A DNA stretch of 64,000 nt from an uncultured Chloroflexia bacterium (GCA_963812745.1 CAWEWE010000005.1:4813-68812), one strand, 5' to 3'. Numbered from the stretch's first letter, positions 22,221-61,366 are shown. A program made the numbers and translations. The notes: a model not told the origin generated them from the letters alone.

Positions 22221-23732
22221 GTGCAGCTTCGTGTCGTCACCGACCAACCATGGGATGTCGCGGCCGACGTCCTGGTCATCCCGATCATCGGGGAGCCAGG
22301 GTTCGACGGGCCGCTCGACGAGCTCGACCGCCGCGCCGGTGGCGCGCTCCGCGCACTGGCCGAGATCAGGGAGCTTCGGGCCAAGCGCTACACGTTCGCG
22401 ATGACACCGAGCGGTGAGCTGCCCGCGTCGTGGCTGCTCACCGTGAGTGCCGGCGACGCCGACAAGGTCGATCGCGAGGTCGCGGCGCGCGTCGCTGCCA
22501 CGGCCGAACGGCGCCTGGCGGGGCGGGTCGTCCGGTCGATGGCCGTCTGGCTGTCGCCGTTGGTCGAGGCCGAGGGCTTCGATGGCGACGCCGCAACGGC
22601 CGCGGAGATGGTCGCCCGCGGCGTGGTCGAGGGCTCGTACGACCCCAAGGCGATCTATCGACCGGACATCGAGTCGAAGCCGCCCATCCTCGACGAGCTG
22701 ATCCTCGTCATCCCCGACGGGGACAAGTCGGCCGTCCAGGCGGGCGGCGAGCGGGGCCTGATCATCGGCGAGGGCGCGAACACCGCGCGAACGCTCGCCA
22801 ATCGCTCGGCGAACGAGATGTACCCCGAGGTCCTCGCCGACGAGGCGCGCGCCATCGCCGAGCGCCACGGCCTGTGGATCGACGTCATCGACGACAAGCG
22901 CGCGACCGAGCTCGGCATGGGCATGTTCATGGCGGTCGGTCGCGGGTCGGACAACCCGCCGCGGATGATCGTGATGCGCTCGGGCGGGGAAGGGGAGCGC
23001 GACAAGCTCGATCGGCACCTGGCCATCGTCGGCAAGGGCGTCTGCTTCGACTCCGGCGGCATCAGCATCAAGCCATCCGAGCGGATGGAAGAGATGAAGA
23101 TGGACAAGGCCGGCGCGTGCACGGTCATCGCGGCGATCGAGACGGTCGCGCGGCTCGCGCCGGGAACGCCACTCCTCGCCGTCGCGCCGGCGGTCGAGAA
23201 CATGCCCGGCCCGCATTCGACTCGACCGGGCGACGTGGTGACGGCACTCAACGGCAAGAAGGTCGACATCACCAACACCGACGCCGAGGGGCGGCTGATC
23301 CTCGGCGATGCGATGACCTACGCGGAGCGACTCGGCGCCACCCATCTCGTCGACGTGGCGACGCTCACCGGGGCGGTGGCGCGCGCGCTCGGGCACCTCG
23401 TGACCGGCGCGTTCGGGCAGCCGCAGGGCTGGTATGACGACCTGATCGCGGCGGCCGGCCGAGCAGGCGAGCGCTATTGGCAACTGCCGCTCATCGAGGA
23501 CTACATCCCCGACATGGAGAGCTGGTACGCGGACTTCCAGAATGCCGGCTCGGCCGAGGGCGGTCTCGTCAAGAGCGCGCTCTTCCTTCGCGAGTTCGCG
23601 ACGGTGCCGTGGATCCACCTCGACATCGCCGGGACGGGCTACTACCGGAAGCCGCAGCCGTTCGGGGCGCGGGGAGCGACGGGTGTCGCCCATGCCACGC
23701 TGGTCGAGCTGGCACTCGCCGGGGCGCGCTGA
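22221..23732 (+). CDS. pepA: Leucyl aminopeptidase (M17 family)
   Basis: NTDAEGRL motif, a VGKGVCFDSGG motif and 503 aa; GTG start. Confidence 0.85.
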   Translation: MQLRVVTDQPWDVAADVLVIPIIGEPGFDGPLDELDRRAGGALRALAEIRELRAKRYTFAMTPSGELPASWLLTVSAGDADKVDREVAARVAATAERRLAGRVVRSMAVWLSPLVEAEGFDGDAATAAEMVARGVVEGSYDPKAIYRPDIESKPPILDELILVIPDGDKSAVQAGGERGLIIGEGANTARTLANRSANEMYPEVLADEARAIAERHGLWIDVIDDKRATELGMGMFMAVGRGSDNPPRMIVMRSGGEGERDKLDRHLAIVGKGVCFDSGGISIKPSERMEEMKMDKAGACTVIAAIETVARLAPGTPLLAVAPAVENMPGPHSTRPGDVVTALNGKKVDITNTDAEGRLILGDAMTYAERLGATHLVDVATLTGAVARALGHLVTGAFGQPQGWYDDLIAAAGRAGERYWQLPLIEDYIPDMESWYADFQNAGSAEGGLVKSALFLREFATVPWIHLDIAGTGYYRKPQPFGARGATGVAHATLVELALAGAR

Positions 23733-23734
23733 CG

Positions 23735-24377
23735 ATCGACCCGCTCGGCATCGTCCTGGCGATCGCGGGCGGCGTGCTCGGCGTCGCCGCGGATCGACTC
23801 GCGACGCGCTGGCCGGAGCACGACGAGGAGCACCCGCCCGGGCGCAGGGTCGACTGGCGGACCGTGGTGTGCGGCGCGGTCGGTGCCGTGTGCGCTCGGC
23901 TTGCTGCCGACGCGCTTTGCTGGGGACACATTGGCGCTGGTCGTCTTCGGGGCGTGGTTCGTGACGCTGATCGTGGGGCTGGCCACGGATCTCGATCAAC
24001 GGGTGCTCCCCGACGAGCTGACGCTGCCGGTCATCCCGCTCGCGCTGCTGTACGCGGTCTCGGGCTTGAACCCGCTTGTCGGCGGCGGGCTGGTGCTGGC
24101 GGTCGCGGCGGCGGTGCTGATCCCGGCGGTGCTGTATCTGCCGTCCCTGCCGTTCGGGGCCGGGGCGTTCGGGATCGGCGACGTCAAGTTCCTGGCCGGG
24201 ATGGGGTTGCTGCTCGGCGGCGAGCACGCGCTCAGCGCGACGCTATTCGGGTTGCTCCTGGCGGGTGTCGTCCTGCTCGTGCTGCTGGCAACGCGGCGCA
24301 TCGGCCGGAAGAGCTTCATCCCGTTCGGCCCGTTCCTGATCATCGGCGCGCTGTGGGGCGTTCTGGTCCTCCCGTAG
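23735..24377 (+). CDS. Prepilin (type IV) leader peptidase, A24 family, one frameshift
   Basis: Multi-TM protein with DLDQRVLPDELT and GIGDVKFLAGMG aspartate motifs. It directly abuts the pepA stop, and the frame changes near 23890. Confidence 0.65.
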
Positions 24378-24699
24378 CGTGACGGTCGGCGACCTCCGCA
24401 CCAACCATGAAGGACGCGCACCCGCACAGCCTTGAGGAGAGCGTCGGGCCGCCCGCGCTCTCGGATCGCGCATATCGCGCATCGGGGCCAGCAGCATTCA
24501 TGGTCGAAGTGCCCCAGAGGGATCCGTTGGCCATGGGATGGACGCCAGAGGGCTGCCCACATCCGCGTTATGCATGGTCGGCCACGTGGGGCGCGGAAGC
24601 GCCCCGCACTCCCTGACCACACAGCAGGTCCCACGACCGCACCGGGACCATCGACCCATCTGGGCGGATGCGGCTGCGCCGCTAGACTGCGCACACTGA

Positions 24700-24860
24700 A
24701 AACTGGACCCGACGCGTTATCATCCCGGGGAGCCGGAAACGGGTTCGTTCTGCGGCTGTGCCAGTCCGAGGACCGCGACCCACCGGCGGGTGTGACCGTC
24801 GCCCGACGCTGTGCCCCGTCCATGGTGTCGCCCTACGGAGAGCCTGCCGCACGATGACGT
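24700..24860 (+). ncRNA. Candidate cyclic-di-AMP (ydaO-type) riboswitch-like leader
   Basis: A roughly 430-bp leader upstream of an M23 cell-wall hydrolase gene contains CCCGGGGAGCC, GGGUGUGACC and CCUACGGAGAGCC elements that resemble remembered ydaO motif blocks. Confidence 0.35.
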
Positions 24861-24867
24861 CGCCCAC

Positions 24868-26274
24868 GTGATCCGCCGCTCCCCACGAACCGAACGTTCC
24901 GAATCTGGGCGTCCCGGGTCGACTGGCTGGTCCAACGACGTCGGTCCGCGCCCGGCGCGGCGCATCCGGCGGCATCTCCCGACCCTCGCCCTGCTGATCC
25001 CGCTGGTGGTCGGCCTGCTCGGCGCGCCCGCCTCGACCAACACGGTGCGCGGCGACGAGCTGGCCGACGCGAAGGCCAGGTCGTCGGCGCTCAAGAAGGA
25101 GATCGCCGAGCAGAAGGCCCAGATCGCGGCGATCAACGACCTCCAATCCGGTCTCGCCGCCGAGATCTCCGACACCAAGAACCAACTGAAGAAGATCGGC
25201 GCCGACCTCGACAAGGTCCGCAAGAAGATCGCCTCGATGCAGGCCAAGATCAACAAGGTCAAGGCCGTCTACGAGAGCCTCGTCGCGCAGCTCGCCGAGA
25301 TGGACGCCGAGCTCCAGCGGGTCATGGCCCAGGAGGCCGCCAAGCGGGTCGAGCTCGCGGAGCGCCGCGCCCAGCTCGCCGATCGCGTCCGCAGCGCCTA
25401 CGACACCGACCGCACCTCCCCGCTCGAGACGTTCCTGTCCGGTGGCTCGTTCACCGACCTCCTCGCCGAGATGTCGTACTACATCGACGTCGGCGAGCAG
25501 GACCGCGCCCTGGCCGACCAGATCGCGAAGGCCAAGGAGACGCTGGCCGCGATCCACCAGACCGTCGCCGAGACCCGCGCGCGCACGAACGTGCTGCGCC
25601 AGGAGACCGCCGCGCAGAAGCGCGACCTCGACAAGGCGATGCGCGCGCTGCAGGAGACCAAGAAGGAGCTTCGTCGGCTCGAAAAGCAAGTCGCCCGCAC
25701 GCTTGCCCAGCAGAAGGCCCGCTACGCCGCGCTGCTCCGCAACAAGCGCAACGCCGCGGCGATCATCCGTCAGGCCGCCGCCGACCAGAAGAAGCTCCAG
25801 CGCGAGATCAACACGCTCATCGCCCGCCAGGTCGCCCGCGGCAACATCCCGAGCGAATTCAACGGCACCATGCGCTGGCCGATGGACGATTTCTCGGTCA
25901 GCGGCGAGTACGGCTGCAGCTCGTTCGAGTGGTACGCGCCGGGCCACGGCTGTGCCCACTTCCACAACGGCATCGACCTCGTCGCCAAGTACGGCGCACC
26001 GATCAAGGCGGCGGCCGCGGGTGAGGTCGTCTACGTCGGCTGGAACTGGGCCGATGGCGCCGACCCGGCCTGGATCGTCGTCGTCGCCCACTCCGGCGAC
26101 CTCAAGACCTGGTACGCCCACATGCAGCCGAAGCGCCCGGTGGCGGTCGGCCAGAGCGTGAAGAAGGGCCAGATCGTCGGCTATGAGGGGAGCACCGGGA
26201 ACTCGACCGGCCCGCATCTCCATTGGATGACCGAGCTCAACGGCGACTTCGTGAACCCCCGCTTGTTCCTGTAG
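24868..26274 (+). CDS. M23 family peptidase with N-terminal coiled-coil (EnvC/murein DD-endopeptidase-like)
   Basis: A long heptad-rich region followed by an M23 LytM domain (HNGIDL, HLHWM). The GTG 24868 start is uncertain. Confidence 0.8.
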   Translation: MIRRSPRTERSESGRPGSTGWSNDVGPRPARRIRRHLPTLALLIPLVVGLLGAPASTNTVRGDELADAKARSSALKKEIAEQKAQIAAINDLQSGLAAEISDTKNQLKKIGADLDKVRKKIASMQAKINKVKAVYESLVAQLAEMDAELQRVMAQEAAKRVELAERRAQLADRVRSAYDTDRTSPLETFLSGGSFTDLLAEMSYYIDVGEQDRALADQIAKAKETLAAIHQTVAETRARTNVLRQETAAQKRDLDKAMRALQETKKELRRLEKQVARTLAQQKARYAALLRNKRNAAAIIRQAAADQKKLQREINTLIARQVARGNIPSEFNGTMRWPMDDFSVSGEYGCSSFEWYAPGHGCAHFHNGIDLVAKYGAPIKAAAAGEVVYVGWNWADGADPAWIVVVAHSGDLKTWYAHMQPKRPVAVGQSVKKGQIVGYEGSTGNSTGPHLHWMTELNGDFVNPRLFL

Positions 26275-26394: not shown

Positions 26395-27744
26395 GTGAAG
26401 CGCACGATGGCGATCATCCTCGCGGGTGGTGAAGGCGAGCGCCTGTCCATCCTGTCATCCGAGCGCGCCAAGCCGGCGGTCCCGTTCGGTGGCAAGTACC
26501 GGATCATCGACTTCACGCTGTCGAACTGCGTCAACTCGGACATCCACGACGTCGTCGTCCTGACCCAGTACAACCCGCGCTCGCTCAACGACCACATCGG
26601 CCTGGGCCGGCCGTGGGACCTCGACCGCAACCGGGGCGGCGTCAAGCTGCTGCAGCCGTACATCGCGCGCGGCAAGGTCGCCGAGTGGTACCAGGGCACC
26701 GCCGACGCCGTGCTGCGCAACATGAACGTCATCGAGCACGATCCATCGGACACGGTCGTCGTGCTGGCCGGCGACCACATCTACAAGATGGATTACCAGC
26801 CGTTCATCGCAGCACACCGTCGCCGACGCGCCGACGTGACCATCGCGGTCAGGCGCGTGCCGCTCGCCGAGGCGTCGCGGATGGGCGTCCTCGCGCTCGA
26901 CGAGAGCGATCGCGTCATCGAGTGGCAGGAGAAGCCCAAGCAACCCAAGACCGACCTGGCGTCGATGGGCGTGTACGTCTTCTCGAAGAAGACGCTCCGC
27001 CGCTGGCTGTCCGAGGATCGGGTCGATTTCGGGCGGCACGTGATCCCGGACATGCTCGCCGCCGGTGCCCGCGTCTTCGGCTATCGCTACAACGGCTATT
27101 GGCAGGACGTCGGCACGATCCAGTCGTTCTGGGAGGCCAACATGGCGCTCCTCGAGGACGACCCGGAGCTCGACCTGTACGACCCCGACTGGGTCATCCA
27201 CACGCGCTCGGAGGAACGCGCGCCGGCCAAGGTCGGGCCGACGGCCCAGGTCCACCGCAGCCTCATCAGCCACGGCTGCGTGATCAACGGCACGGTCGTG
27301 AACTCGGTGCTGTCGCCGGGCGTGCGCGTCGAGGTCGGGGCCGTCGTCCGCGACTCGATCGTGATGTTCGACTCGGTCATCCGGTCGAGCGCGGTCGTCG
27401 ATCGCTCGATCCTCGACAAGGAGGTCGTGGTCGGTCAGGGCGCGATCGTCGGGAGCGGTCCGTACGACGACCGGCCGAACAAGCAAGAGCCGACCCGGCT
27501 CAACACCGGGATCACGGTCGTCGGCAAGCGCGCGGTGATCCCCCGCGGCGGGCAACTCGGCCGGAACGTGCGGATCGCGGCCGACATCCGCACGAGCGAC
27601 TTCGTCAAGAAGGTCATCAAGAGCGGCGAATCGGTGGAACGACGGACGGGCGGGCGCCATGCCCACGACCACGGTCGCGGCACCCACGTCCACGAGGTCG
27701 GCGTCGCCGAGGCGGCCACGGGAGCGGTGCGCGGCCGACGCTAG
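26395..27744 (+). CDS. glgC: Glucose-1-phosphate adenylyltransferase
   Basis: [26 protein letters not shown] and GTADAV motifs. Confidence 0.85.
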
Positions 27745-27792: not shown

Positions 27793-28716
27793 ATGCGCCG
27801 TCGAACGGCCACCCATCGGCCGCTCCTCGGCTGGATCGCCCTCGGGCTGGTGACGGTCGTCGCCGGCTGCGAGGCGAACGCTGGATCGCTCGGATCGGGC
27901 GCTTCGCAGGCCGCCGTGTCGACGCCGGCGCCGTCCACGGCTCCCGTGGCGGTCGCGCTACCGACGGCAACCCCCGAACCGACCCCGCAGCCGACCCTCC
28001 CGTGGACGGGCGCTACGCCGACGCCCACCGCCACGCCGGCTCCCACCGCCACCCCGCCGACGCCGGCACCGACGCCCCGCTACGACCCGCCGCCGAAGCG
28101 CGGACCCTTCGAGATGAACCTCTACCACCGGGGTGACTTCGCCACGCAGGTGACCAAGATCTACTGCGTCCCCGGCGCGATGCAGACGATGATGAACGTC
28201 ATGGACCGCGGCGCCACGAAAGCGTCGCTCAAGGTCCAGGACCGCCTTCATCGGCTCGCCCGCCGGCTGTCGACCGATCGCTTGCGCGGCCAGGGCTCCG
28301 AGCCCGAAGGCTGGGCGCGCGGGCTCGAACGCCTCGGCTACGGCCGGTTCAAGGTGGTCGCCGCCGCCGCCCGGGGAGGTGCGATCAAGCTCGCCGCTCG
28401 GGCCATCCGCCGGACCAACCGGCCGGTCGGCCTGCTCGTGTGGCGTGGTGCGCACGCCTGGGTGATGACCGGGTTCAAGGCCACCGCCGATCCGGCGCTG
28501 ACCGACGAGTACCGGGTCACGCACGTCCGGATCGTCGACGTCTGGTATCCGCGCGTCAGCTCGATCTGGGGCGCGTCGGTCAAGCCGAACACGTTGGTGG
28601 CCGTCGGGAAGCTCCCCGAGGACTACCTGCCGTGGCGGCGGCCGCTCATGAAGTACCCGGACAAGGACCGCAAGTTCGTGCTCGTCATGCCGGTCGGGGA
28701 GCGCAGCGCGGCCTAG
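27793..28716 (+). CDS. Lipoprotein with Pro/Thr-rich linker and peptidase C39-like (papain-fold) domain
   Basis: Lipobox VVAGC, a PT-rich linker, QVTKIYCVPGAMQTMMNVM (Gln/Cys block) and GAHAWVMTG...IVDVWYP (His/Asp block). Confidence 0.5.
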   Translation: MRRRTATHRPLLGWIALGLVTVVAGCEANAGSLGSGASQAAVSTPAPSTAPVAVALPTATPEPTPQPTLPWTGATPTPTATPAPTATPPTPAPTPRYDPPPKRGPFEMNLYHRGDFATQVTKIYCVPGAMQTMMNVMDRGATKASLKVQDRLHRLARRLSTDRLRGQGSEPEGWARGLERLGYGRFKVVAAAARGGAIKLAARAIRRTNRPVGLLVWRGAHAWVMTGFKATADPALTDEYRVTHVRIVDVWYPRVSSIWGASVKPNTLVAVGKLPEDYLPWRRPLMKYPDKDRKFVLVMPVGERSAA

Positions 28717-28740
28717 CCGATGGGCTAGACTCCGCGGGCC

Positions 28741-29289
28741 ATGCCTTCCGCCGACCACGGCGCGCCCAGCGTGGGCCCGGCCGACGTCGAACGCTGGCTC
28801 AGCGACCTCGGTCTCGAACCGGTCGACCGAGCTGAGCGCGATGGGATCACCAGCTGGGATCTCGTGCTCGACGGCCGCCGCCGCTTCGACCTCCGCGTGA
28901 CCGTGATCCACGATCCCGCGCTGGCCCTGATCTGCTGGGCGCATTTCGCCCCGCCGATCGGCGACATGTTCCGCAAGTCGTACCGCAAGCTCCTGCGGTG
29001 GAACGACGAATTCCCGTTCGCCAAGTTCGGGATCGGCGAAGACGAGCGCCCGCTCCTGGCGATCGAGCTGCCCATCGAGCGCATCACCCGCGACGAGGGT
29101 GAGGAGGCGCTCGGGCTGGCACTGGCGCGGATCGTCGCGATCGCGGACCGGCTGCTCGAGGAGTCCGCGGGCTGGCTGTGGATCGGTGGTCGCATGCCCG
29201 ACCAGTCCGGCCGGACGCGGCGGAACGCGGCGTTCCTCGACCGGTACGAGGGCCTGCTGCCCGAGCTCGTCGCCGAGCCCACCGCGTGA
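28741..29289 (+). CDS. YbjN-like (putative sensory transduction regulator / T3SS-chaperone-like) domain protein
   Basis: About 180 aa with composition and pattern similar to the YbjN family. Its stop overlaps the downstream GTG start. Confidence 0.45.
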   Translation: MPSADHGAPSVGPADVERWLSDLGLEPVDRAERDGITSWDLVLDGRRRFDLRVTVIHDPALALICWAHFAPPIGDMFRKSYRKLLRWNDEFPFAKFGIGEDERPLLAIELPIERITRDEGEEALGLALARIVAIADRLLEESAGWLWIGGRMPDQSGRTRRNAAFLDRYEGLLPELVAEPTA

Positions 29290-31301
29290 CCGGTTCGCGG
29301 CGGGGTCGCCCGTTCCTCCTGGTATTCGCTGCGGCACTCGCGGTGAGTGGCGTCATCGCGGCTCCAGCTGCCGAAGTTCGCGCGGCCGCGCCGGATCTGT
29401 CGATCGTCAGCGCGGCCAGGTACGACGTCCAGCCGGCGCACAAGCGGGTCCGCGTCACCGTCGACCTGACGCTCGCCAACCGGCTCAAGGACACGAAGAC
29501 ACGGCGCTACTTCTTCGACCACGCGTTCCTGGCGGTCCTGCCCGGCGCCAGCGGCTATCGACTGACCTGGGATGGCGCCGGCCAGCCATCGGTGTCGGTC
29601 GCGCGCAAGACGGCGACGCACACGCTGTTGCGGCTGAACCTTGCGCGTGACCTGGCCAGCGGTCGCTCGGCCAAGTACCGCCTGACGTTCGACCTCAAGG
29701 ACCCGGGCGGGAAGGCGACGCGCGACCTGCGCATCGGCGACACCCTCGTCTCGTTCCCGGTCTGGGCCTTCGCCAGCGACGACACGCCGGGAAGCTCGGT
29801 GACGGTCATCTTCCCGAAGGGCTACGACGTCGCGGTCGAGGCCGGTCGCATCCCGACACCGGACAAGCTGGCCGACGGCCGCACGGTGTTCCGCAGCGGG
29901 ATCCTCGCCAAACCGCTCGACTTCTTCGCCTACCTGGTCGCCGATCGGCCGGGCGCCTACGTCGACACCACCGTGACCACCACCGTGCAGGGCCGCGACA
30001 TCGAGGTGGTCGTGCGGGCGTGGACGGACGATCGGACGTGGGCCAAGCGCGTGACCCGGCTGCTCGACACGGCGCTCCCGGCGCTCGGGGCGCGGATCGG
30101 GCTGCCGTGGCCGGACTACGACCAGCCGATGATCGTCCAGGAGGCGGTCAGCCGGTCGACCGGTGGCTACGCCGGCATCTTCGATCCGGCGGCCGGGACG
30201 GTCGCCATCGCGTACTACGCCGACGACTTCGTCGTCCTCCACGAGGCGGCCCATGCCTGGTTCAACGGCGCGCTCCTGGCCGACCGCTGGTCGAACGAGG
30301 CGTTCGCCTCGTATTACGGCGCCTTGGCCGCCGCGGACACGAAGGTCAAGGTCGCGCCCGAGCGCCTCACGCCCGCGCTCGAGAAGGCCCGGATCCCGCT
30401 CAACGCCTGGGGCCCGGTCGGGACGGCGGACGTCACGCAGGAGGACTACGCCTACGCCGCGTCGCTCGAGCTGGCCCGGCTGATCGGCGAGCGCGCCGGT
30501 CCCGACGGGTTGCAGGTGGTCTGGGGCGATGTGTCGGACCGGCGGAGCGCCTATCAGCCGGTCGGCGGCGGTGACGAGATCGTCGGCGGGCCGGTCGATT
30601 GGCGCGGACTGCTGGACCTGCTCGAGGCCCGGACCCATGTCGCGTATGACGACCTGTGGCGGACGTGGGTCGCGCGGCCCGAGGACCTCGTGCTGCTCGA
30701 TGCGCGACAGGCGGCACGCACGCGCTACGCGTCGTTCCTCGAGACGGTCGAGGGCTGGAACGTGCCGCTGTCGATCCGTGACGCGATGCGATCGTGGCGG
30801 TTCAAGGAGGCCAACGCCCTGATCGACGGGGCCACCTCGATCGTCGAGCTGCGCGGCGAGGTCGAGGCGGCGGCCGGGATGGCCGGGCTGACCGCCCCGG
30901 ACACGCTGCGCATGGCATTCGAGGACGACGACGGCTTCGACGATGCCGCTGCCGAGGCCGACGCCGAGCTGGTGGCGATCGAGCGCTACGTCGCGGCCGT
31001 CTCGCAGCGGCCGGCCGCGATCACGCCGCTCATGCGGCTCGGGCTGTGGGCGGAGACGCCCGAGGCGGACCTCGTCGCGGCCAAGGAGGCGTTCGCCCAG
31101 GGCGACCTGGCCGGCGCGACCGCGGCAGCCGACGAGGCCGCGACATCGTGGATGAGCGCCGAGTCCGCCGGGCAGGGCAGGGCATTCAGCATCGGGACCA
31201 TCGTCATCTCGCTGCTGTTCATCCTGGCACTCATGATCGTGACGTTCCGGCGCCGCAGGCGTCGACGCATCAGGATGCAGGCCTCACGGCTCCGGACCTG
31301 A
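29286..31301 (+). CDS. Secreted, C-terminally membrane-anchored M1-like gluzincin metallopeptidase (HEAAH...E)
   Basis: Signal peptide. VVLHEAAHAWFNGALLADRWSNEAFASYY aligns to the M1 HExxH-x18-E block with a 4-residue deletion. A C-terminal TM helix is followed by a poly-Arg stop-transfer. Confidence 0.65.
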   Translation: MTGSRRGRPFLLVFAAALAVSGVIAAPAAEVRAAAPDLSIVSAARYDVQPAHKRVRVTVDLTLANRLKDTKTRRYFFDHAFLAVLPGASGYRLTWDGAGQPSVSVARKTATHTLLRLNLARDLASGRSAKYRLTFDLKDPGGKATRDLRIGDTLVSFPVWAFASDDTPGSSVTVIFPKGYDVAVEAGRIPTPDKLADGRTVFRSGILAKPLDFFAYLVADRPGAYVDTTVTTTVQGRDIEVVVRAWTDDRTWAKRVTRLLDTALPALGARIGLPWPDYDQPMIVQEAVSRSTGGYAGIFDPAAGTVAIAYYADDFVVLHEAAHAWFNGALLADRWSNEAFASYYGALAAADTKVKVAPERLTPALEKARIPLNAWGPVGTADVTQEDYAYAASLELARLIGERAGPDGLQVVWGDVSDRRSAYQPVGGGDEIVGGPVDWRGLLDLLEARTHVAYDDLWRTWVARPEDLVLLDARQAARTRYASFLETVEGWNVPLSIRDAMRSWRFKEANALIDGATSIVELRGEVEAAAGMAGLTAPDTLRMAFEDDDGFDDAAAEADAELVAIERYVAAVSQRPAAITPLMRLGLWAETPEADLVAAKEAFAQGDLAGATAAADEAATSWMSAESAGQGRAFSIGTIVISLLFILALMIVTFRRRRRRRIRMQASRLRT

Positions 31302-31312
31302 AAGGGAGCGAC

Positions 31313-33475
31313 ATGGGAACCGATCGCGCACGCCGCTCCCGGATGCTCGCCACGCTGGCGACCGCCGGCCTGCTGGCGGTGGTGGCCGTGTTCGTGCCGC
31401 CGACGGTCGGGACCGTGCACGCCGCCGACGACTTCCTGCGCGTCTCGGCCGCTACCACCTATCGCGTCGACACCGGCGATCGGCTCGTCCGCGTCCGGAT
31501 CGATTTCACGATGACGAATCTGCGACCGAACAGCGTGCGTCGGACGTCGCTCGGCACGACGACCACCCGCTACTACTTCGACCGGCTGCTGTTCGCGGTC
31601 CCCACGGAGGCCCGCTCGCTCGTGTCGACGTCCGGTGGGTCGCGACTGGGGACAGCCGTCCGTGCTCGGGCTCGATACCGCGAGGTGACGGTCCGCTTCC
31701 CGAACCTGTTCTATCGCGCGTCCCGCTCCGTCCGCGTGGAGTTCACGCTGCCGGGCGGCAAGCCACGCACGGCCAGCGACATCCGGGTCGGCTCGGCCTT
31801 CACGACGTTCACGGCATGGGCGTGGGGTGACGCGGGCCGCTCGACGGTCCGCATCTTCCTGCCGAAAGGTTTCGTCGACGCCGGGTACGGGACGGACGTG
31901 AGGCAGCAGACCCGACCAGACCGTGTGGAGCTGTCCAGCGGCACGATCCGCGACCCCGACGAGTGGTACCGCGTGGTCATCGCCGATCGGCCGTCCGCGT
32001 TGACCGATCTGCGCATCGAGCCCGATGGGCGAGGCGTCGTCGTCAAGGCCTGGCCCGAGGACACCGTCTGGCGCGACCGGGTTGCCGACGTGCTGGAGAA
32101 GGGTCTGCCCGTCCTCGAGGAGATGATCGGCTTGCCGTGGCCGATCAGCGGCGATCTCACGGTCAGCGAGGTCCACACCCCGCTCCTCCACGGCTACGCC
32201 GGGTTCTACGACGCCAAGACCGACGACATCACGATGAGCGAGGACCTCGACGATCAGACGATCCTCCATGAGGCGTCGCACGCATGGTTCAACGGCGATC
32301 TGGTGCGCGATCGCTGGATCGACGAGGGGCTCGCGGAGTACTACGCCGACCGGGCGCGCGCGAAGCTCGGTCTCTCGGACGAATTCGCGCCGACGGTCGT
32401 CGAGCCGACCGATGCCGGCGCGTTCCCGTTGAATGCATGGCCCGATCCGGGCCGCATAGAGGACGAGAAGACCGACGCGCAGGAGCGCTTCGGCTACGGC
32501 GCGGCGTACACGGTCATCCGGCGCATCGCGCAGGACATCGGCGACGACGGGATGCGGGCCGTTCTGGCCGCTGCTGACGCCGGCGAGAACCCGTATGTGG
32601 GCGACGAGGGACCCGAGAAGACCGGCGCCCGCTCGGACTGGCGGCGGTTCCTCGATCTCGTCGAGGAGCGCGGCGACACCGACACCGCCGATGACCTCTT
32701 CAGCCGCTGGGTCGTGCCGCCGGCCGAGCGGGGGATGCTCACGACCCGCGAGCGGGCGCGCGAGGCGTACGCCGCGCTGGATACGGCCGGCGCCGAATGG
32801 GCCGTGCCGCGTGGCGTCCGCGCGCACATGAGCCTGTGGCGGTTCGACGATGCCACGGAGCTGATGGATGCGGTCGAACCGGTACTGACGTTGCGCGACG
32901 AGCTGACCGGTGCGACCGCGGATCTGCAACTCGAGACGCCGCCCGACATCGAGAAGCCGTTCGAGGAAGCGGTCACCGACAAGGATCTCGACGAGGTCGA
33001 GGCCACGATCCAGGCGCGCCTCGACGCGGCGACGGCGGTGCTCGGCGCACGTGGCGCGCTCGCCACGGAGCGCACGCCGCTCGCCGCGCTCGGCCTCGTC
33101 GGGGAGACGCCCGATGGCGGCTACGTCGCGGCCAGGTCGGCGCTCGAAGGCGGGGACGTCGCGGGCGCCGCGGCTGGGGCCGCGACGACCATGTCGCTCC
33201 TCGCCGGCGCCGAATCGATCGGCACGACGCGCGCCATCGTCATCGCCGCGGTCATCGTCGGGTTGGTGCTCCTGCTGGCCGTCCTGATCGTCGTGCGCCG
33301 GCGTCGCCGCGGCCGCCTCGCGCTCGCGGGCGGACCGGTCCTCGAGAGCACCGCGGCGAACGCATCGACTACACTCCCGGCCACGCCGGAGCCGGCGGGC
33401 GTCGTCGGACCTGAGGTCGCACCTGAGGTCGCGCCGACGCCGAGCCAGACCGCACCAGGAGCCGAGCCGGACTGA
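31313..33475 (+). CDS. Paralogous secreted, C-terminally anchored M1-like gluzincin metallopeptidase (HEASH...E)
   Basis: Same architecture as the upstream gene (ILHEASHAWFNGDLVRDRWIDEGLAEYY, C-terminal TM plus RRRRR). It is preceded by an AAAGGGAG ribosome-binding site. Confidence 0.65.
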   Translation: MGTDRARRSRMLATLATAGLLAVVAVFVPPTVGTVHAADDFLRVSAATTYRVDTGDRLVRVRIDFTMTNLRPNSVRRTSLGTTTTRYYFDRLLFAVPTEARSLVSTSGGSRLGTAVRARARYREVTVRFPNLFYRASRSVRVEFTLPGGKPRTASDIRVGSAFTTFTAWAWGDAGRSTVRIFLPKGFVDAGYGTDVRQQTRPDRVELSSGTIRDPDEWYRVVIADRPSALTDLRIEPDGRGVVVKAWPEDTVWRDRVADVLEKGLPVLEEMIGLPWPISGDLTVSEVHTPLLHGYAGFYDAKTDDITMSEDLDDQTILHEASHAWFNGDLVRDRWIDEGLAEYYADRARAKLGLSDEFAPTVVEPTDAGAFPLNAWPDPGRIEDEKTDAQERFGYGAAYTVIRRIAQDIGDDGMRAVLAAADAGENPYVGDEGPEKTGARSDWRRFLDLVEERGDTDTADDLFSRWVVPPAERGMLTTRERAREAYAALDTAGAEWAVPRGVRAHMSLWRFDDATELMDAVEPVLTLRDELTGATADLQLETPPDIEKPFEEAVTDKDLDEVEATIQARLDAATAVLGARGALATERTPLAALGLVGETPDGGYVAARSALEGGDVAGAAAGAATTMSLLAGAESIGTTRAIVIAAVIVGLVLLLAVLIVVRRRRRGRLALAGGPVLESTAANASTTLPATPEPAGVVGPEVAPEVAPTPSQTAPGAEPD

Positions 33476-34525
33476 ATGGGCATCGAGCGGGCAGGACCGT
33501 CCCACGAGATCCTGTCGGGCGACTCAGCCGACGTCTATTTCGCGCGCGCCGACAGCATCCTGGCGGCCGAAGGCCTCGATCCGATCGTGACCATGGAGGT
33601 CTTCACGCGCCGCGAGGCGGTCCTGTGCGGCATCGACGAGGCCAAGAACCTGCTGGGGCACGTGCTCGCGGAGTGCGATCCGCACGAGACGACGGTCGAG
33701 GCGCTCGATGACGGCGACCGGATCGGGCCGCGCGAGGTCGTGCTCCGGATCCGCGCCCGCTATCGGCGGTTCGGGTTGTACGAGACGGCGTTGCTCGGGA
33801 TGCTCGCCCAGTCGACCGGCTGGGCGACGGCGGCTCGCGAGATCGTCGATGTCGCCGCGCCGGAACCGGTGATCAGCTTCGGGGCGCGGCATGTCCACCC
33901 GGACATCACCGACGTGCTCGATTACGCGGCGATCGTCGGCGGCTGCGTCGGTGCGTCGACGCCGGCCGGGGCGCGGCTCGCCGGTCTCGCCCCGACCGGG
34001 ACGATGCCCCACTCGCTGGTGCTGATCTTCGGCGATACGGTGGAGGCGGCCCTGGCGTTCGACCGCCATCTCGGGCCGGACGTCGCCCGGATCGTGCTGG
34101 TCGACACGTTCAAGGACGAGGCGGAGGAGGCCCTCCGGGTCGCGCATGCGCTCGGCGATCGGCTGTACGGCATCCGCCTCGACACGCCGTCCGAGCGGGG
34201 GCGCGTCACGGCCGACCTGGTCCACGAGGTCAGGGCCAGGCTGGACATGGAGGGCTACCAGCACGTGCGGATCGTGGTGTCGGGCGGCCTCGACCTCGAC
34301 CGCGTCCGCTATTTCAAGGAGGCGGGGGCGCCGGTCGACTCGTACGCGGTCGGGTCGTACATCAGCGGGGCGACGCCGATCGATTTCACCGGCGACATCA
34401 AGGAGATCGACGGACGGCCGATCGCCAAGCGCGGCCGGATCCCCGGCACGACTCAATCGCCGCGGCTCAAGCCGGTCGACCTCGCCGCATACCGGCAATT
34501 GGTCGCCGACGCCGTCACCGGGTAG
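33476..34525 (+). CDS. Nicotinate phosphoribosyltransferase family protein (NAPRTase/QAPRTase-like)
   Basis: ATG immediately after the upstream stop. The protein carries typical type-II PRTase fold motifs. Confidence 0.6.
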   Translation: MGIERAGPSHEILSGDSADVYFARADSILAAEGLDPIVTMEVFTRREAVLCGIDEAKNLLGHVLAECDPHETTVEALDDGDRIGPREVVLRIRARYRRFGLYETALLGMLAQSTGWATAAREIVDVAAPEPVISFGARHVHPDITDVLDYAAIVGGCVGASTPAGARLAGLAPTGTMPHSLVLIFGDTVEAALAFDRHLGPDVARIVLVDTFKDEAEEALRVAHALGDRLYGIRLDTPSERGRVTADLVHEVRARLDMEGYQHVRIVVSGGLDLDRVRYFKEAGAPVDSYAVGSYISGATPIDFTGDIKEIDGRPIAKRGRIPGTTQSPRLKPVDLAAYRQLVADAVTG

Positions 34526-34599: not shown

Positions 34600-35010
34600 G
34601 TGGACGACCACATCCTCGACGACGAGCCCCAGCCGGAGTCGGCATACGACCTGCTCCAGCGCGGACAGGCGCTGCTCGCCTCGCGGCACCATGCCCAGGC
34701 GGCGATCGTGCTCGAGCGCGCCGACCGGCTCGAGCCCGGCAAGGCATCGATCCTCGAGGCCCTCGGGCGGGCGTACTTCAACTCCGGGCAGCCCGAGGCC
34801 GCCAGGGCGACGTTCGAGCGCGTCCTCGAGCTCGACCCGTCCGCGCCGTACGCGCACTTCGCGCTCGGTCAGAGCCTGAAGCGGCTCGGCCGTCGCGAGG
34901 AGGCCGGCACGCACCTGCGGATGGCCTGTGCGCTCAGCCCGGAGTCGTCCCTCTATCGCGACGCGCTGGCCCGGCTCGGTGATGCGGCGCGACCCAGGCG
35001 AGCGCGTTAG
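34600..35010 (+). CDS. TPR-repeat protein
   Basis: Three TPR-like repeats (ALGRAYFNSGQPEAA...); GTG start. Confidence 0.55.
   Translation: MDDHILDDEPQPESAYDLLQRGQALLASRHHAQAAIVLERADRLEPGKASILEALGRAYFNSGQPEAARATFERVLELDPSAPYAHFALGQSLKRLGRREEAGTHLRMACALSPESSLYRDALARLGDAARPRRAR

Positions 35011-35632: not shown

Positions 35633-35636
<4 letters not shown>
35007..35636 (-). CDS. NUDIX hydrolase (ADP-ribose pyrophosphatase-like)
   Basis: Nudix box (AARRELEEETGV). N-terminal homology (VLHRGAFLEFRVDTVERADG...GHPGAV) continues in-frame upstream of the annotated GTG at 35450 with no canonical start. A CTG overlapping the upstream TGA is the only candidate. Confidence 0.6.
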
Positions 35637-36742
<1,106 letters not shown>

Positions 36743-36915
36743 GGGCGCAGCCTCCGGCCTGTTCCACCATCGCGGGTCCATGCATCCAGTCGCCGAGGCG
36801 ATGTCCCGCGCGGGAGCGGGACGCGGACGGACCCCGTACGTGGCGACGCAGGGTCTCGCATCGTACGGTCGGGCGGGGTCGGGCGCAACGGTCAAGGAGA
36901 GGTGCCCCGGCTGCG

Positions 36916-37088
36916 CTTGGAACGCCCCATGTTCCAAGCGGCGAAGGAACCGACGAGAACCGGGGTACTTCAAGCCGTCGTTCGCCATTTGGAACCCGTA
37001 GATGTTCCAAATGGCGTCTGGGTGGGTGGAATCGCGCCCCATCTTCGTCAGTTGGAACATCGTGATGTTCCAGCCGCGCCGCTGGAAC
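36916..37088. promoter_or_regulatory. Array of three palindromic operator-like sites (TTGGAAC-N7/8-GTTCCAA) plus a half-site in a divergent intergenic region
   Basis: Full sites at 36916-36938, 36986-37013 (perfect 10-bp arms CATTTGGAAC/GTTCCAAATG) and 37052-37072, with a half-site at 37083-37088. They stand out as AT-rich in GC-rich DNA. Confidence 0.6.
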
Positions 37089-42852: not shown

Positions 42853-42929
42853 TGGGGTGGCCTATGGGGCTCGAACCCATAACCTTCGGAGCCACAATCC
42901 GATGCTCTGCCGATTGAGCTAAGGCCACC
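42853..42929 (-). tRNA. tRNA-His (anticodon GTG)
   Basis: Manually folded cloverleaf: G-1 paired to discriminator C, acceptor stem GTGGCCT/AGGCCAC, D-stem GCTC/GAGC, anticodon stem TCGGA/TCCGA with loop TTGTGGC, T-loop TTCGAGC, and an encoded CCA. Confidence 0.85.
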
Positions 42930-59080: not shown

Positions 59081-59899
59081 ATGTTCGGCCCCGAGTCGGA
59101 AGCGTGGCGGCTCGACCGTGAGGCGATGCTGCTGCTCGGCGCCGGGCCGCGCGCGCTGCTGCTGCAGATCGCCCATCCGGGGGTCGCGGCCGGGGTGGCC
59201 GAGCACTCGGACTTCCGGACCGACCCGTGGCGGCGGCTCGATGGGACGCTGCGCAGCTATCTGCGCATCATCTATGGCTCGAGCGCGGCGGCGCGCGAGG
59301 AGATCCGCCGGCTGAACGCGCTCCATCGCGGGATCCAGGGCCAGGGCTATTCCGCGCGCGATCCGGCGCTGTCCCTGTGGGTGCACGCGACGCTGGTCGA
59401 CTCGACGCTGGTGGTCAATCGGGCGTGGGCCGGCCCCGTGACACGCGACCAGGCGGCCCGCTTTTACGAGGAGACCAAGCCGATCGCCCGGGCCTTCGGC
59501 GTGCCGGATGCGCTGCTGCCGCCGGACCTCGAGGCATTCGCGGCCTATCTCGATGCCCAACTGGGACCCGGCGGCCCGGTGCGGGTCGGGCCGGTGGCGC
59601 GTGATCTTGCGGCGGTGATACTCCATCCGCCGCTCCCCGGGGTGCTGGCACGGACCGGGCTCCACCCACGGCTGTACGACTGGACGCTGTGGCCCTCGAT
59701 CGCGCTGCTACCGCCCGCGATCCGCGAGGACTACGGCCTCCGATGGGGGCCGGTCGAACGGGCCGTCGCGGGCTGGCTCGTGACGGCCTGGCGGGCGTGG
59801 AACCCGCGGCTGCCGGCATCATTCCGGCAGATGCCACAGGCACTCGCGGCCGAGCGTCGCGTCAACGGCGACGATGGCGCCGCGACGGCCGCTCAGTAA
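59081..59899 (+). CDS. MpaB/DUF2236 family oxygenase-like protein
   Basis: Pattern consistent with DUF2236 (LLLQIAHPGVAAGVAEHS...). The start could instead be 59021. Confidence 0.5.
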   Translation: MFGPESEAWRLDREAMLLLGAGPRALLLQIAHPGVAAGVAEHSDFRTDPWRRLDGTLRSYLRIIYGSSAAAREEIRRLNALHRGIQGQGYSARDPALSLWVHATLVDSTLVVNRAWAGPVTRDQAARFYEETKPIARAFGVPDALLPPDLEAFAAYLDAQLGPGGPVRVGPVARDLAAVILHPPLPGVLARTGLHPRLYDWTLWPSIALLPPAIREDYGLRWGPVERAVAGWLVTAWRAWNPRLPASFRQMPQALAAERRVNGDDGAATAAQ

Positions 59900-61292
59900 A
59901 GCGACGGGAAGCGCGGGGCGAACAGCGTCGAGAGGTTGACCGGCGTCGCGTCGTCGAGCGTCTGGAGCAGCGTCTTCGTCGTCGAGATCCGGTAGCGTCG
60001 GTCGATCACGTACTGCCTGAGCGTCGACCAGAACAGCGTCGACCCCATCTTCGAGCGGGCCTGGTTGAGCAGGTTGCCGCCCTGGATATAGACGATCTCG
60101 TAGTAGCAGGCGGCCGTGTAGCTGTAGATCGATCGGTCGAGCCGGCCGGTCGAGCAGCGGCTGGCCCGGCGCGTACCGGTGATGTCGCGCGCGACGAAGT
60201 CGGCCAGTGCCTCGTCGGCGAACGGTTGGCGCGCCTGGTCGTTGCCGACCAGCCCGTAGAACCACTGGTGCGCGGTCTCGTGCGCCACGAGGTAGCGCAG
60301 GTTCGCGCGGCTGACGCCGTACGGGATCCAGGTCAACCCGGGCGATTCCATGCCGTAGCCGCCGGCCGACTGGACCACCTTGTAGATCGGGTAGGGGTAC
60401 GTGCCGAGCCGCGAGCGCATCGACCGGAAGGCATCGGCGGCCGCGTCGACGATCAGCGCCCGGTTCGCGGACGACCGGTAGTAGTAGCGCACCTTGGTCG
60501 ACCCGACGAGGACCGTGGTCGTCCGGAAGTCGGGCGCCGCGGTGATCGTGACGTCGCGCACGTTGCGGGCGACGAAGCGCTGGGTGAGGCCGTCGGACGA
60601 GACCGACGATGCGGTCGGCGGTCGACGCGACGACCAGCCGGCGGTCCGCCTTGATGGTGACCGATACCTCAGGGCTGACCGGCGTCACGAAGGGGTCGCC
60701 GTGGTTCGGCCGGGTGAACGGTGTCGCCCGACTGACCCACGGGATCCAGCGATACGCGTCGACGATGCCGTTGACCTTGGTGAACAACCAGTTCGACCCC
60801 GATAGCGAGCTCCGCAGTCGGGCCAGGTAGTGCACCCGCACCCTGACAGCTCTCCCCGGCGGGCAGGATGCCGCCGAGCGGCACGATCACCGTCTGATCG
60901 CTGATACGGCCGCTGACGTTCTTGCCGTCGACGCTGACCGCCCGCAGCGACATGCCGCCCAGGCGAGCGGCGATCGTGTTGAGCTCGACGCGGTCGATCG
61001 GGCCACCGGACGTGTTCGTGATCTGCGCGATCGTGTTCGCGGAGAACCAGCGGCTCGAGTAGCTGAGCGTCAGCCCGACCGAGTACGTCGCCGACAGGTT
61101 GAGGCTCGACCGGTTGACGCTGCCCGGGATGATCGCGCTCGCCGTGGTCGCGGCGGGGGTCGTCTCGGCGCCCTGGGCGGCCCGCTCGCCGATCTCCCGT
61201 TCGCACGCCAGGGCAGGGGCGGCGATCCCGAGGACCAACAGGACGGCCAGCCCGACCGGAGCGGCGATGCGGGACGTCGATCGCCGGGACAT
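59893..61292 (-). CDS. Secreted M1-like gluzincin metallopeptidase (HETAH...E), two frameshifts
   Basis: Signal peptide, and AHETAHQWFYGLVGNDQARQPFADEALA, which gives HExxH with the Glu at +19. The gene is spread over three frames, with shifts near 60600 and 60700. Confidence 0.6.
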
Positions 61293-61366
61293 CGCAGGAA
61301 TCGTACCCCGCGGGGTCCATCCCACGGTCCCGGACCATGGTCCCCGTCGCCCTACACTGCTCAGCC

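Follow-up and report, generated by a model that had tools for sequence, protein, structure and literature searches.

The window analysed here is a 64,000-nucleotide stretch of DNA from an uncultured soil Chloroflexia bacterium (GCA_963812745.1, CAWEWE010000005.1:4813-68812), and its positions 27793-33475 contain four open reading frames (ORFs) that run in the same direction and either overlap or are spaced by no more than 24 bp. The last two of these ORFs encode paralogous proteins resembling peptidases of family M1, tentatively referred to as P3 and P4. We propose, at a probability of roughly 0.6, that P3 and P4 together make up a two-subunit zinc metallopeptidase of an unnamed family, extracytoplasmic and tethered to the membrane, in which P4 is the catalytic subunit. 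The proposal draws on the predicted fold, the active-site motifs, the sequence-level topology, the conservation pattern of the two paralogs, their natural fusions, and synteny. The genes of the block, and the features of P3 and P4 used in the argument, are as follows (coordinates in the window):

27793-28716, plus strand: lipoprotein of 307 amino acids (ORF scan)
28741-29289, plus strand: YbjN-family protein of 182 amino acids (PF10722 match)
29286-31301, plus strand: P3, the 671-amino-acid paralog A of the M1-like gluzincin pair (ORF scan; start as in the public gene call)
30240-30299, plus strand: zinc-binding block of P3, HEAAHAWFNGALLADRWSNE (H319-E338), read from the sequence
31185-31247, plus strand: C-terminal transmembrane helix of P3 (residues 634-654), with RRRRRRR and then a short tail before the stop codon (hydropathy, ortholog tails)
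31313-33475, plus strand: P4, the 720-amino-acid paralog B (ORF scan, AlphaFold AF2 model)
32267-32326, plus strand: zinc-binding block of P4, HEASHAWFNGDLVRDRWIDE (H319-E338), of the form HExxH-x14-E
32495-32497, plus strand: Tyr395 of P4, aligned with the M1 catalytic Tyr, i.e., the YSKG Tyr of aminopeptidase N (APN) (HMMER alignment to porcine APN)
33233-33295, plus strand: C-terminal transmembrane helix of P4 (residues 641-661), followed by RRRRR (hydropathy)
33296-33472, plus strand: cytoplasmic tail of P4, low-complexity, with an STTL motif and an acidic C-terminus (AF2 predicted local distance difference test, pLDDT, below 50)

P3 and P4 share 33% identity across approximately 657 amino acids (E 5e-76), which bears out a preliminary description of this DNA in which they appeared as adjacent paralogs of 707 and 720 amino acids. 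The length given for P4 stands, while 707 is only the maximal ORF length of P3, whose likely start is the GTG at 29286. This codon overlaps the stop codon of the YbjN-family gene (GTGA), agrees with the N-termini of the orthologs, is the start used in the public annotation, and gives a protein of 671 amino acids.

A hydropathy scan found exactly two hydrophobic segments in each of P3 and P4, one at the N-terminus that resembles a signal peptide and precedes an AxA-like site (VRA/A in P3 and VHA/A in P4, the slash marking the putative cleavage point), and a C-terminal helix followed by five to seven Arg. This layout is conserved family-wide, and R663-R666 of P4 are invariant or nearly so across the family. 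The predicted order in P3 is a signal peptide, a beta-sandwich domain, a catalytic domain, a helical stalk, the C-terminal transmembrane helix, and an Arg-rich tail. The corresponding parts of P4 are placed at residues 1-37 (signal peptide, VHA/ADD), 42-245 (beta-sandwich), 246-425 (thermolysin-like catalytic domain), 443-640 (helical stalk), 641-661 (transmembrane helix), and 662-720 (cytoplasmic tail). Beyond the poly-Arg, the tails of the P4 orthologs are variable and predicted to be disordered, and many, though not all, carry a (P)Y/S-A/T-T-L motif and an acidic end; STTL is the form that this semi-conserved motif, (P)Y-A-T-L in many orthologs, takes in the window. P3 tails are short and basic, without the (P)Y-A-T-L motif.

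The signal peptide, single C-terminal transmembrane helix and poly-Arg described earlier for both paralogs are therefore upheld by the hydropathy scan and the family-wide layout. So is the remark that an N-out, C-anchored topology is unusual for M1 enzymes: P3 and P4 would be type I proteins with a signal peptide and a C-terminal anchor, whereas mammalian M1 enzymes are type II proteins anchored at the N-terminus and bacterial PepN is cytosolic. Together, these features support the prediction of P3 and P4 as gluzincins outside the cytoplasm, anchored at the C-terminus in an unusual type I topology. We assume export by Sec. Tat export was considered and rejected, as the twin Arg is inconsistently placed across the orthologs. 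A sortase- or exosortase-type sorting signal at the transmembrane-plus-poly-Arg end was likewise rejected, as no NCBIfam sorting-domain model matched. The P3 tail does have the transmembrane-plus-basic layout of C-terminal sorting signals (LPXTG/sortase, PEP-CTERM and similar), and Gram_pos_anchor gave one weak match (E 0.047) in one member of the P3/P4 family; P4, unlike such signals, continues for a further ~60 residues beyond the transmembrane helix.

The structure of P4 was modelled with AF2 from a 78-sequence family alignment, giving a mean pLDDT of 89 and a predicted template modelling score (pTM) of 0.78. The model is beta-rich at residues 42-245, mixed alpha/beta in the catalytic region 246-425, and all-helical at 443-663, where the last helix is the transmembrane one, and ends in a disordered tail. 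It has the N-terminal beta-sandwich and thermolysin-like catalytic domain that make up the M1 fold, and its helical part matches the long helical region noticed in the preliminary description. In a Foldseek search against PDB, the top matches of the model were exclusively M1 aminopeptidases (E 7e-15 to 1e-13, probability 1.0), namely ERAP1, LTA4 hydrolase, IRAP, ERAP2, PSA, APA, and a two-domain Deinococcus M1 enzyme, in alignments of ~500 columns at 10-16% identity. Whole-chain TM-scores were low (0.2-0.4), as expected from the different domain arrangement and C-terminal domain. The best match by target-normalised TM-score (0.36-0.39, 16% identity) was M1dr of Deinococcus radiodurans (PDB 6a8z/6iff), which shares with P4 a bacterial beta-sandwich and catalytic core. 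With 429-432 residues resolved, the matched chain of M1dr is too short to span the helical stalk or membrane anchor of P4, and M1dr passes as a regular M1 member, unlike P4.

At the sequence level, similarity between P3/P4 and M1 is confined to the zinc motif. Pfam Peptidase_M1 (PF01433) scored 12.8 bits with P3 and 14.1 bits with P4 against a cut-off of 27.7, with the match limited to the HExxH...E block, and gave weak matches in seven of 12 further family members (best E 0.007). Peptidase_MA_2 (PF13485) had no match at E<=1 in P3, P4 or these 12 members, NCBIfam gave only sub-threshold noise with the proteins of the P3/P4 region, and sequence and profile searches of PDB with P3 and P4 returned nothing significant (E>1). 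The Pfam comparison proposed earlier thus leaves both proteins below the M1 threshold and outside MA_2, whereas their fold and zinc motif are M1-like. The P3/P4 homologs among the matches listed are all annotated as hypothetical and carry no Pfam domain, which supports the view that P3 and P4 belong to no characterised family.

The active site combines M1 features with departures from them. In both proteins the zinc ligands are spaced as HExxH-x14-E, whereas M1 enzymes have x18, and alignments to APN, ERAP1, and a true M1 gene elsewhere in the window (59893-61325, see below) each place a gap of 4-5 residues between HExxH and the Glu ligand; the four-residue deletion before this Glu that had been read from the sequence is thus confirmed. 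Y395 of P4 falls on the YSKG catalytic Tyr of porcine APN. With the HExxH...E ligands, this Tyr and the fold of P4, the earlier designation of the pair as M1-like gluzincins holds. The strand equivalent to the GxMEN motif of M1 reads (E/H)GYAG(F/V)(Y/F) across the P3/P4 family, and its GYAG-F aligns by position and spacing with GYGMES of the true M1 gene in the window. We infer that the GYAG strand is the counterpart of GxMEN with the motif Glu replaced by a hydrophobic residue. In M1 aminopeptidases, the GxMEN Glu binds the alpha-amino group of the substrate, i.e., its free N-terminus. Its replacement would therefore make an endo- or oligopeptidase more likely than a classical aminopeptidase.

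P3 and P4 are accordingly best compared with the M1 enzymes PepN, APN/CD13, ERAP1/2, IRAP and LTA4H, with which P4 shares the fold, the HExxH and Glu ligands and the aligned Tyr. In both groups a helical domain follows the catalytic domain, and the mammalian M1 enzymes are likewise membrane ectoenzymes. Besides the differences in spacing, in GYAG-F/V versus GxMEN, and in topology, the P3 and P4 genes differ from M1 in occurring obligately in tandem, with one of the two decaying. Judged from their motifs, P3 and P4 probably have the mode of action of clan-MA gluzincins, built on an M1 scaffold, while they score below the M1 profile threshold and lack both the x18 spacing and GxMEN.

The two paralogs are unequal in how their active sites are conserved. 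G294, Y295, G297, H319, E320, H323, E338, E391, and Y395 of P4 are invariant in all 81 sequences compared. In 10 of 74 P3 orthologs, another residue takes the place of the catalytic Glu (Gln in eight, Ala in one and Val in one), in 11 the catalytic Tyr is substituted (Phe in seven, other residues in four), and in two the first His is lost, while the Glu ligand is retained in all 74. When mapped on a neighbour-joining tree of P4, the losses of the P3 Glu are scattered over at least five positions. The P3 genes that have lost catalytic residues are intact, and overall conservation of P3 equals that of P4 in every domain; despite the catalytic losses P3 is as conserved as P4, and was therefore presumably kept for a non-catalytic reason. 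In the window itself, P3 has all catalytic residues (H319, E320, H323, E338, and Y390).

P3 and P4 also occur as single in-frame fusion ORFs of ~1370 amino acids, at two of the loci compared (L049, 5649-9989, and L058, 5796-9995) and in a metagenome protein (P0241, 1373 amino acids, with two matched stretches in the profile search). Their presence in three independent sequences argues against an assembly error. The junction consists of the P3 transmembrane helix, a short Arg-rich loop, the former signal-peptide core of P4, A-x-A/A-D-D, and mature P4, an order that would be topologically coherent as a helical hairpin, and the fused protein might still be cleaved into two chains at the retained AxA/ADD site. 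The repeated decay of P3 and the P3-P4 fusions support a two-subunit enzyme in which P4 is catalytic over two redundant proteases accompanied by accessory ones. The preliminary description had not noticed that P4 is always catalytically intact, that P3 has decayed repeatedly, and that the two are fused in some lineages. A comparable arrangement is known from the M16 mitochondrial processing peptidase, the alpha and beta subunits of which are an active/inactive paralog pair whose inactive partner is kept despite having lost catalytic residues. As is generally known of M16 pairs, P3 and P4 have one intact zinc site, a decaying but retained partner, and fusion or obligate co-occurrence. The fold and clan are different (M16 enzymes are inverzincins with HxxEH), and a P3-P4 complex is putative.

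To examine distribution and gene order, GTDB species representatives were scanned, which gave 180 stretches encoding relatives; the best 80 loci were fetched for locus comparisons, and the ten neighbourhood proteins of the window were mapped onto them by tblastn. Nearly all 80 loci are labelled Limnocylindrales, Chloroflexota or Chloroflexia, and the closest relatives of the window proteins come from metagenome-assembled genomes labelled Candidatus Limnocylindrales or Chloroflexota. The tandem pair occurs in ~180 species-representative genomes, and its profile has ~1,150 matching protein clusters at E<=1e-30. Locus L027 (DATNBW010000227.1) has the complete neighbourhood of the Limnocylindria type and is labelled Verrucomicrobiia, which is probably a binning or taxonomy-label error and not presence outside Chloroflexota. 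Among the 80 loci and the best 120-150 matches listed per search, the P3/P4 family was seen only in Limnocylindria-type Chloroflexota. Wherever a locus covers both genes (74 of 80), P3 and P4 lie side by side, and no genome keeping only one paralog was found where both positions were covered. YbjN lies directly upstream of P3 in 70 of 70 loci with enough flank, and YbjN-P3-P4 has the same order, on one strand and uninterrupted, in every such locus, with approximate gaps of ~2 bp (median; maximum 101) between YbjN and P3 and ~30 bp (median) between P3 and P4. Insertions are tolerated in the flanks (up to 4 kb between GlgC and YbjN, and up to 1.5 kb between P4 and the next gene) and never occur within YbjN-P3-P4. 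The flanking genes in the window are:

24811-26274, plus strand: PcsB-like coiled-coil M23 peptidase
26395-27744, plus strand: GlgC
33476-34525, plus strand: NAPRT, a nicotinate/quinolinate phosphoribosyltransferase-type gene
34600-35010, plus strand: TPR protein
beyond the TPR gene, minus strand: a Nudix gene and then a MalK-like ABC ATPase gene

Taken together, these observations suggest how the pair would work. P3 and P4 would each be exported via the N-terminal signal peptide and held in the cytoplasmic membrane by one C-terminal transmembrane helix with its Arg-rich stop-transfer, so that an M1-like head (the beta-sandwich and the thermolysin-like catalytic domain) would stand outside the cell atop a helical stalk. 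P4 would be the obligate catalytic subunit, equipped with His-Glu-x-x-His, the Glu ligand, and the transition-state Tyr. P3 would be its paralogous partner, catalytically equipped in this genome and dispensable as an enzyme, since many lineages have inactivated it. The simplest guess for the role is extracellular trimming of peptides or proteins at the cell surface. The cytoplasmic YbjN protein, translationally coupled to P3, might serve as a chaperone that acts before export or binds the tail.

Several observations weigh against this proposal. Signal-peptide cleavage in P3 and P4 was judged from AxA-like motifs alone; P3 of the window is catalytically complete, so that both proteins are possibly independent active enzymes here; and the P3-P4 fusion is confined to one clade. 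Near the GYAG strand there are two conserved residues, E286 and E/H293, that might stand in for the GxMEN Glu, which would make aminopeptidase activity possible. The P4 tail motif shows no co-variation with YbjN, the latter being universal. The M23-GlgC genes upstream and the NAPRT, TPR, Nudix and ABC genes downstream are as conserved in order across the class as YbjN-P3-P4. Since M23-GlgC-YbjN-P3-P4-(NAPRT)-TPR-Nudix-ABC is wholly syntenic, adjacency of YbjN is weak evidence of shared function, and with housekeeping flanks equally syntenic, synteny by itself is no argument for a dedicated system. NAPRT, a cytoplasmic NAD-salvage enzyme, is often only 0-20 bp from P4 and equally tightly packed; as it abuts P4, tight packing at this locus is no proof of shared function.

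Some of these points would fit a different explanation, namely that P3 and P4 are independent, redundant surface amino- or oligopeptidases for nutrient scavenging, which arose by an old tandem duplication and form no complex, with YbjN unrelated to them and the neighbourhood conserved merely through Limnocylindria synteny. The equal conservation of unrelated housekeeping neighbours and the complete catalytic residues of both paralogs in the window agree with such a scenario, and M1-fold enzymes typically trim peptides. It does not explain why catalytically dead P3 has stayed under purifying selection in at least five independent lineages, why in-frame P3-P4 fusions exist, or why genomes with a single paralog were not found where both positions were covered. 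We consider it unlikely, though not far-fetched, and retain the two-subunit enzyme with catalytic P4 as the preferred reading.

The YbjN-family protein bears on a more elaborate form of the two-subunit reading. It matches PF10722 with 31.5 bits, above the cut-off of 22 (E 2.4e-7, model positions 4-124 of 126), and its position before the paralogs is, as given above, constant among adequately flanked loci, so that the family assignment and placement in the preliminary description both stand. The hydropathy scan found no hydrophobic segment in it, which indicates a cytoplasmic protein. PMC9503650, citing the AmyR and DR1245 structures, describes YbjN-family members as peptide-binding proteins resembling type III secretion system chaperones. 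Like E. coli YbjN, Erwinia AmyR and Deinococcus DR1245, the product of 28741-29289 passes the Pfam threshold for the family; its link to the peptidases consists of adjacency and the start/stop overlap. We know of no YbjN member tied to a membrane peptidase so far. From the adjacency, it is plausible that YbjN acts as a chaperone, either for the precursors of P3 and P4 or for the tail. Binding of YbjN to the PYATL tail of P4 in particular was considered and set aside as speculative, the motif not co-varying with the universal YbjN. In the more elaborate form, P3 and P4 would be an obligate heterodimeric surface endopeptidase, a new clan-MA family derived from the M1 fold, in which the anchor for the substrate N-terminus would be lost and one subunit would be on its way to becoming a pseudoenzyme, and a dedicated YbjN chaperone would control its assembly or export by recognising cytoplasmic or N-terminal segments of the subunits. 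We regard this as decidedly unlikely in its entirety; if true, it would provide the first functional partner for a YbjN-family protein in envelope biogenesis.

The first gene of the block encodes a lipoprotein. Its only hydrophobic segment in the hydropathy scan ends in a lipobox, VVAGC (MRRRTATHRPLLGWIALGLVTVVAG followed by C), which predicts Cys26 as the lipid anchor, and most homologs retain (G/A)C at this position. A Pro/Thr-rich linker of ~75 amino acids is followed by a domain with a papain-like Cys-peptidase fold (residues ~100-302), for which the AF2 model has pLDDT mostly above 90 (residues 100-300). Foldseek matched this domain to papain-like enzymes (E 3e-4 to 2e-2, probability 0.95-1.0), including phytochelatin-synthase-like Alr0975, UfSP, staphopain, a papain-like CdiA-CT toxin, the Bacillus anthracis C39-like protein 3erv, and the C39 domain of PCAT1. 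All 42 sequences compared from the lipoprotein family have C125, H221, D233 and D249, while Q119, the proposed oxyanion Gln, is Gln or Glu. The modelled fold and the Cys...His...Asp in papain order, both shared with clan CA enzymes, support a papain-like domain, which in this protein would be lipid-anchored via a long Pro/Thr linker and, unlike those enzymes, has no significant Pfam match. Pfam, including Peptidase_C39_2 (PF13529), gave no match to the window lipoprotein at E<=1, and PF13529 matched one of the 42 homologs, at E 0.06. Of the C39_2-type lipoprotein reported earlier, the lipobox, the papain-like fold and invariant C125, H221 and D249 therefore remain, and the Pfam C39_2 assignment and a fixed Gln119 do not. 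The lipoprotein is 100% identical to a protein in a public ENA assembly, and its ~1,360 homologs are all annotated as hypothetical, none with a Pfam domain.

The subclade to which the window belongs (six loci, L001-L006) is the only one with the lipoprotein gene between GlgC and YbjN; in the loci from L007 on, GlgC and YbjN are ~50-140 bp apart, and the lipoprotein is absent there in all adequately flanked loci. The neighbours of distant homologs include YCII-domain, metallo-beta-lactamase-fold, and further unrelated genes, none of them M1-like. The lipoprotein is thus a recent, lineage-specific neighbour or insertion and not an integral component of YbjN-P3-P4, and the four-gene order of the preliminary description is conserved for YbjN-P3-P4 only. 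The same findings count against an explanation in which the lipoprotein Cys-peptidase, YbjN, P3, and P4 form one maturation system, acting sequentially on a surface precursor with YbjN as a secretion chaperone. The tight, co-directional spacing of the four genes, the predicted location of all three envelope proteins outside the membrane, the papain-like fold and conserved triad of the lipoprotein, and the recurrence of the four-gene order in L001-L006 speak for such a system, but the lipoprotein is missing elsewhere, its distant homologs have other neighbours, the Pfam C39_2 match is lacking, and the block contains neither a precursor-peptide gene nor a transporter gene. We find it quite improbable, and the idea of a dedicated four-gene processing system is not supported, the lipoprotein not being conserved there and the unrelated flanks being equally syntenic.

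Highly improbable is a pair that serves chiefly in transmembrane sensing or signalling and not in degradation, with an ectodomain that binds or cleaves an extracellular ligand and a P4 tail motif (PYATL) that relays the signal, possibly via YbjN: the semi-conserved cytoplasmic motif in an otherwise disordered tail, the cytoplasmic YbjN gene always translationally close, the frequency of pseudoenzyme partners in receptor-like assemblies, and the historical naming of YbjN as a "putative sensory transduction regulator" would suit it, but many P4 orthologs lack the motif though YbjN is present, no regulator, kinase, or sigma/anti-sigma gene is found in the block, the invariant catalytic machinery of P4 argues for real hydrolysis, and the "sensory" name has no experimental basis, the family being described as chaperone-like.

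The remaining features of the window, which has a GC content of ~70%, are:

22221-23732: M17 leucyl aminopeptidase
23883-24377: A24 prepilin-type peptidase
42856-42928, minus strand: tRNA gene (Rfam RF00005, 68 bits)
59893-61325, minus strand: true M1-family gene, secreted and interrupted (frame analysis; PF01433 after repair)

The last of these had been described as a third secreted M1-like gene at 59893-61292. It is a genuine PF01433 member, but it lies on the minus strand 26 kb away, belongs to a different family from P3 and P4, and contains two frameshifts: the frame changes from 0 to 1 near 60845 and from 1 to 2 near 60600, with no long homopolymer at either change. After conceptual repair, it encodes 464 amino acids with GYGMES and HETAHQWF and matches PF01433 at 37.6 bits, making it a short true-M1 type like M1dr; its resemblance to the P3/P4 profile extends over only 30 columns around the zinc motif. 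Either this is a pseudogene, or the frameshifts are errors of the long-read assembly. At the same locus as the P3-P4 block in another sample (L083, 4494-6510; ENA ERZ25039547 contig_124737), P3 is split into ORFs of 429 and 256 amino acids. Frameshifts in these assemblies, which are built from long reads, may therefore be errors, and what looks like a pseudogene in this window calls for caution.

Upstream of the lipoprotein-P4 block, peptidase genes are abundant at 22221-26274. Downstream, the P4 stop codon (33475) directly abuts the ATG of NAPRT (33476), and one public gene call (P0025, 929 amino acids) unites a P4 ortholog with the downstream phosphoribosyltransferase (PF02749, PF01729), which is probably due to stop-codon loss or a calling artefact and not a meaningful fusion. 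The MalK-like ABC ATPase gene has a maximal ORF (35633-37060) that contains a malK-III RNA motif (Rfam, 62.8 bits against a gathering score of 50) at 36740-36853 on the minus strand, upstream of the conserved ATPase region. The true start of this gene is therefore likely downstream of the longest-ORF start. PADLOC gave zero matches, i.e., no sign of a known defence system, and a promoter/terminator consensus scan of 24-36 kb gave a single match of each kind, promoter-like and terminator-like, in keeping with the range of shuffled controls. Literature searches on Limnocylindria and peptidases, and on YbjN and metallopeptidases, turned up no mention of the P3/P4 family.

Limnocylindria are abundant, uncultured Chloroflexota of soil and freshwater, and the P3/P4 family found in them is large and unnamed; its recognition as M1-fold ecto-peptidases would give it a testable function. 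The result is incremental, overturning no expectation and settling no long-standing question. It would extend the M1 fold by a type I topology, an active site without GxMEN, and a pair of one active and one decaying subunit. With one paralog invariant, the other repeatedly inactivated, and natural fusions of the two, the family may serve as a natural experiment on the origin of pseudoenzyme subunits.

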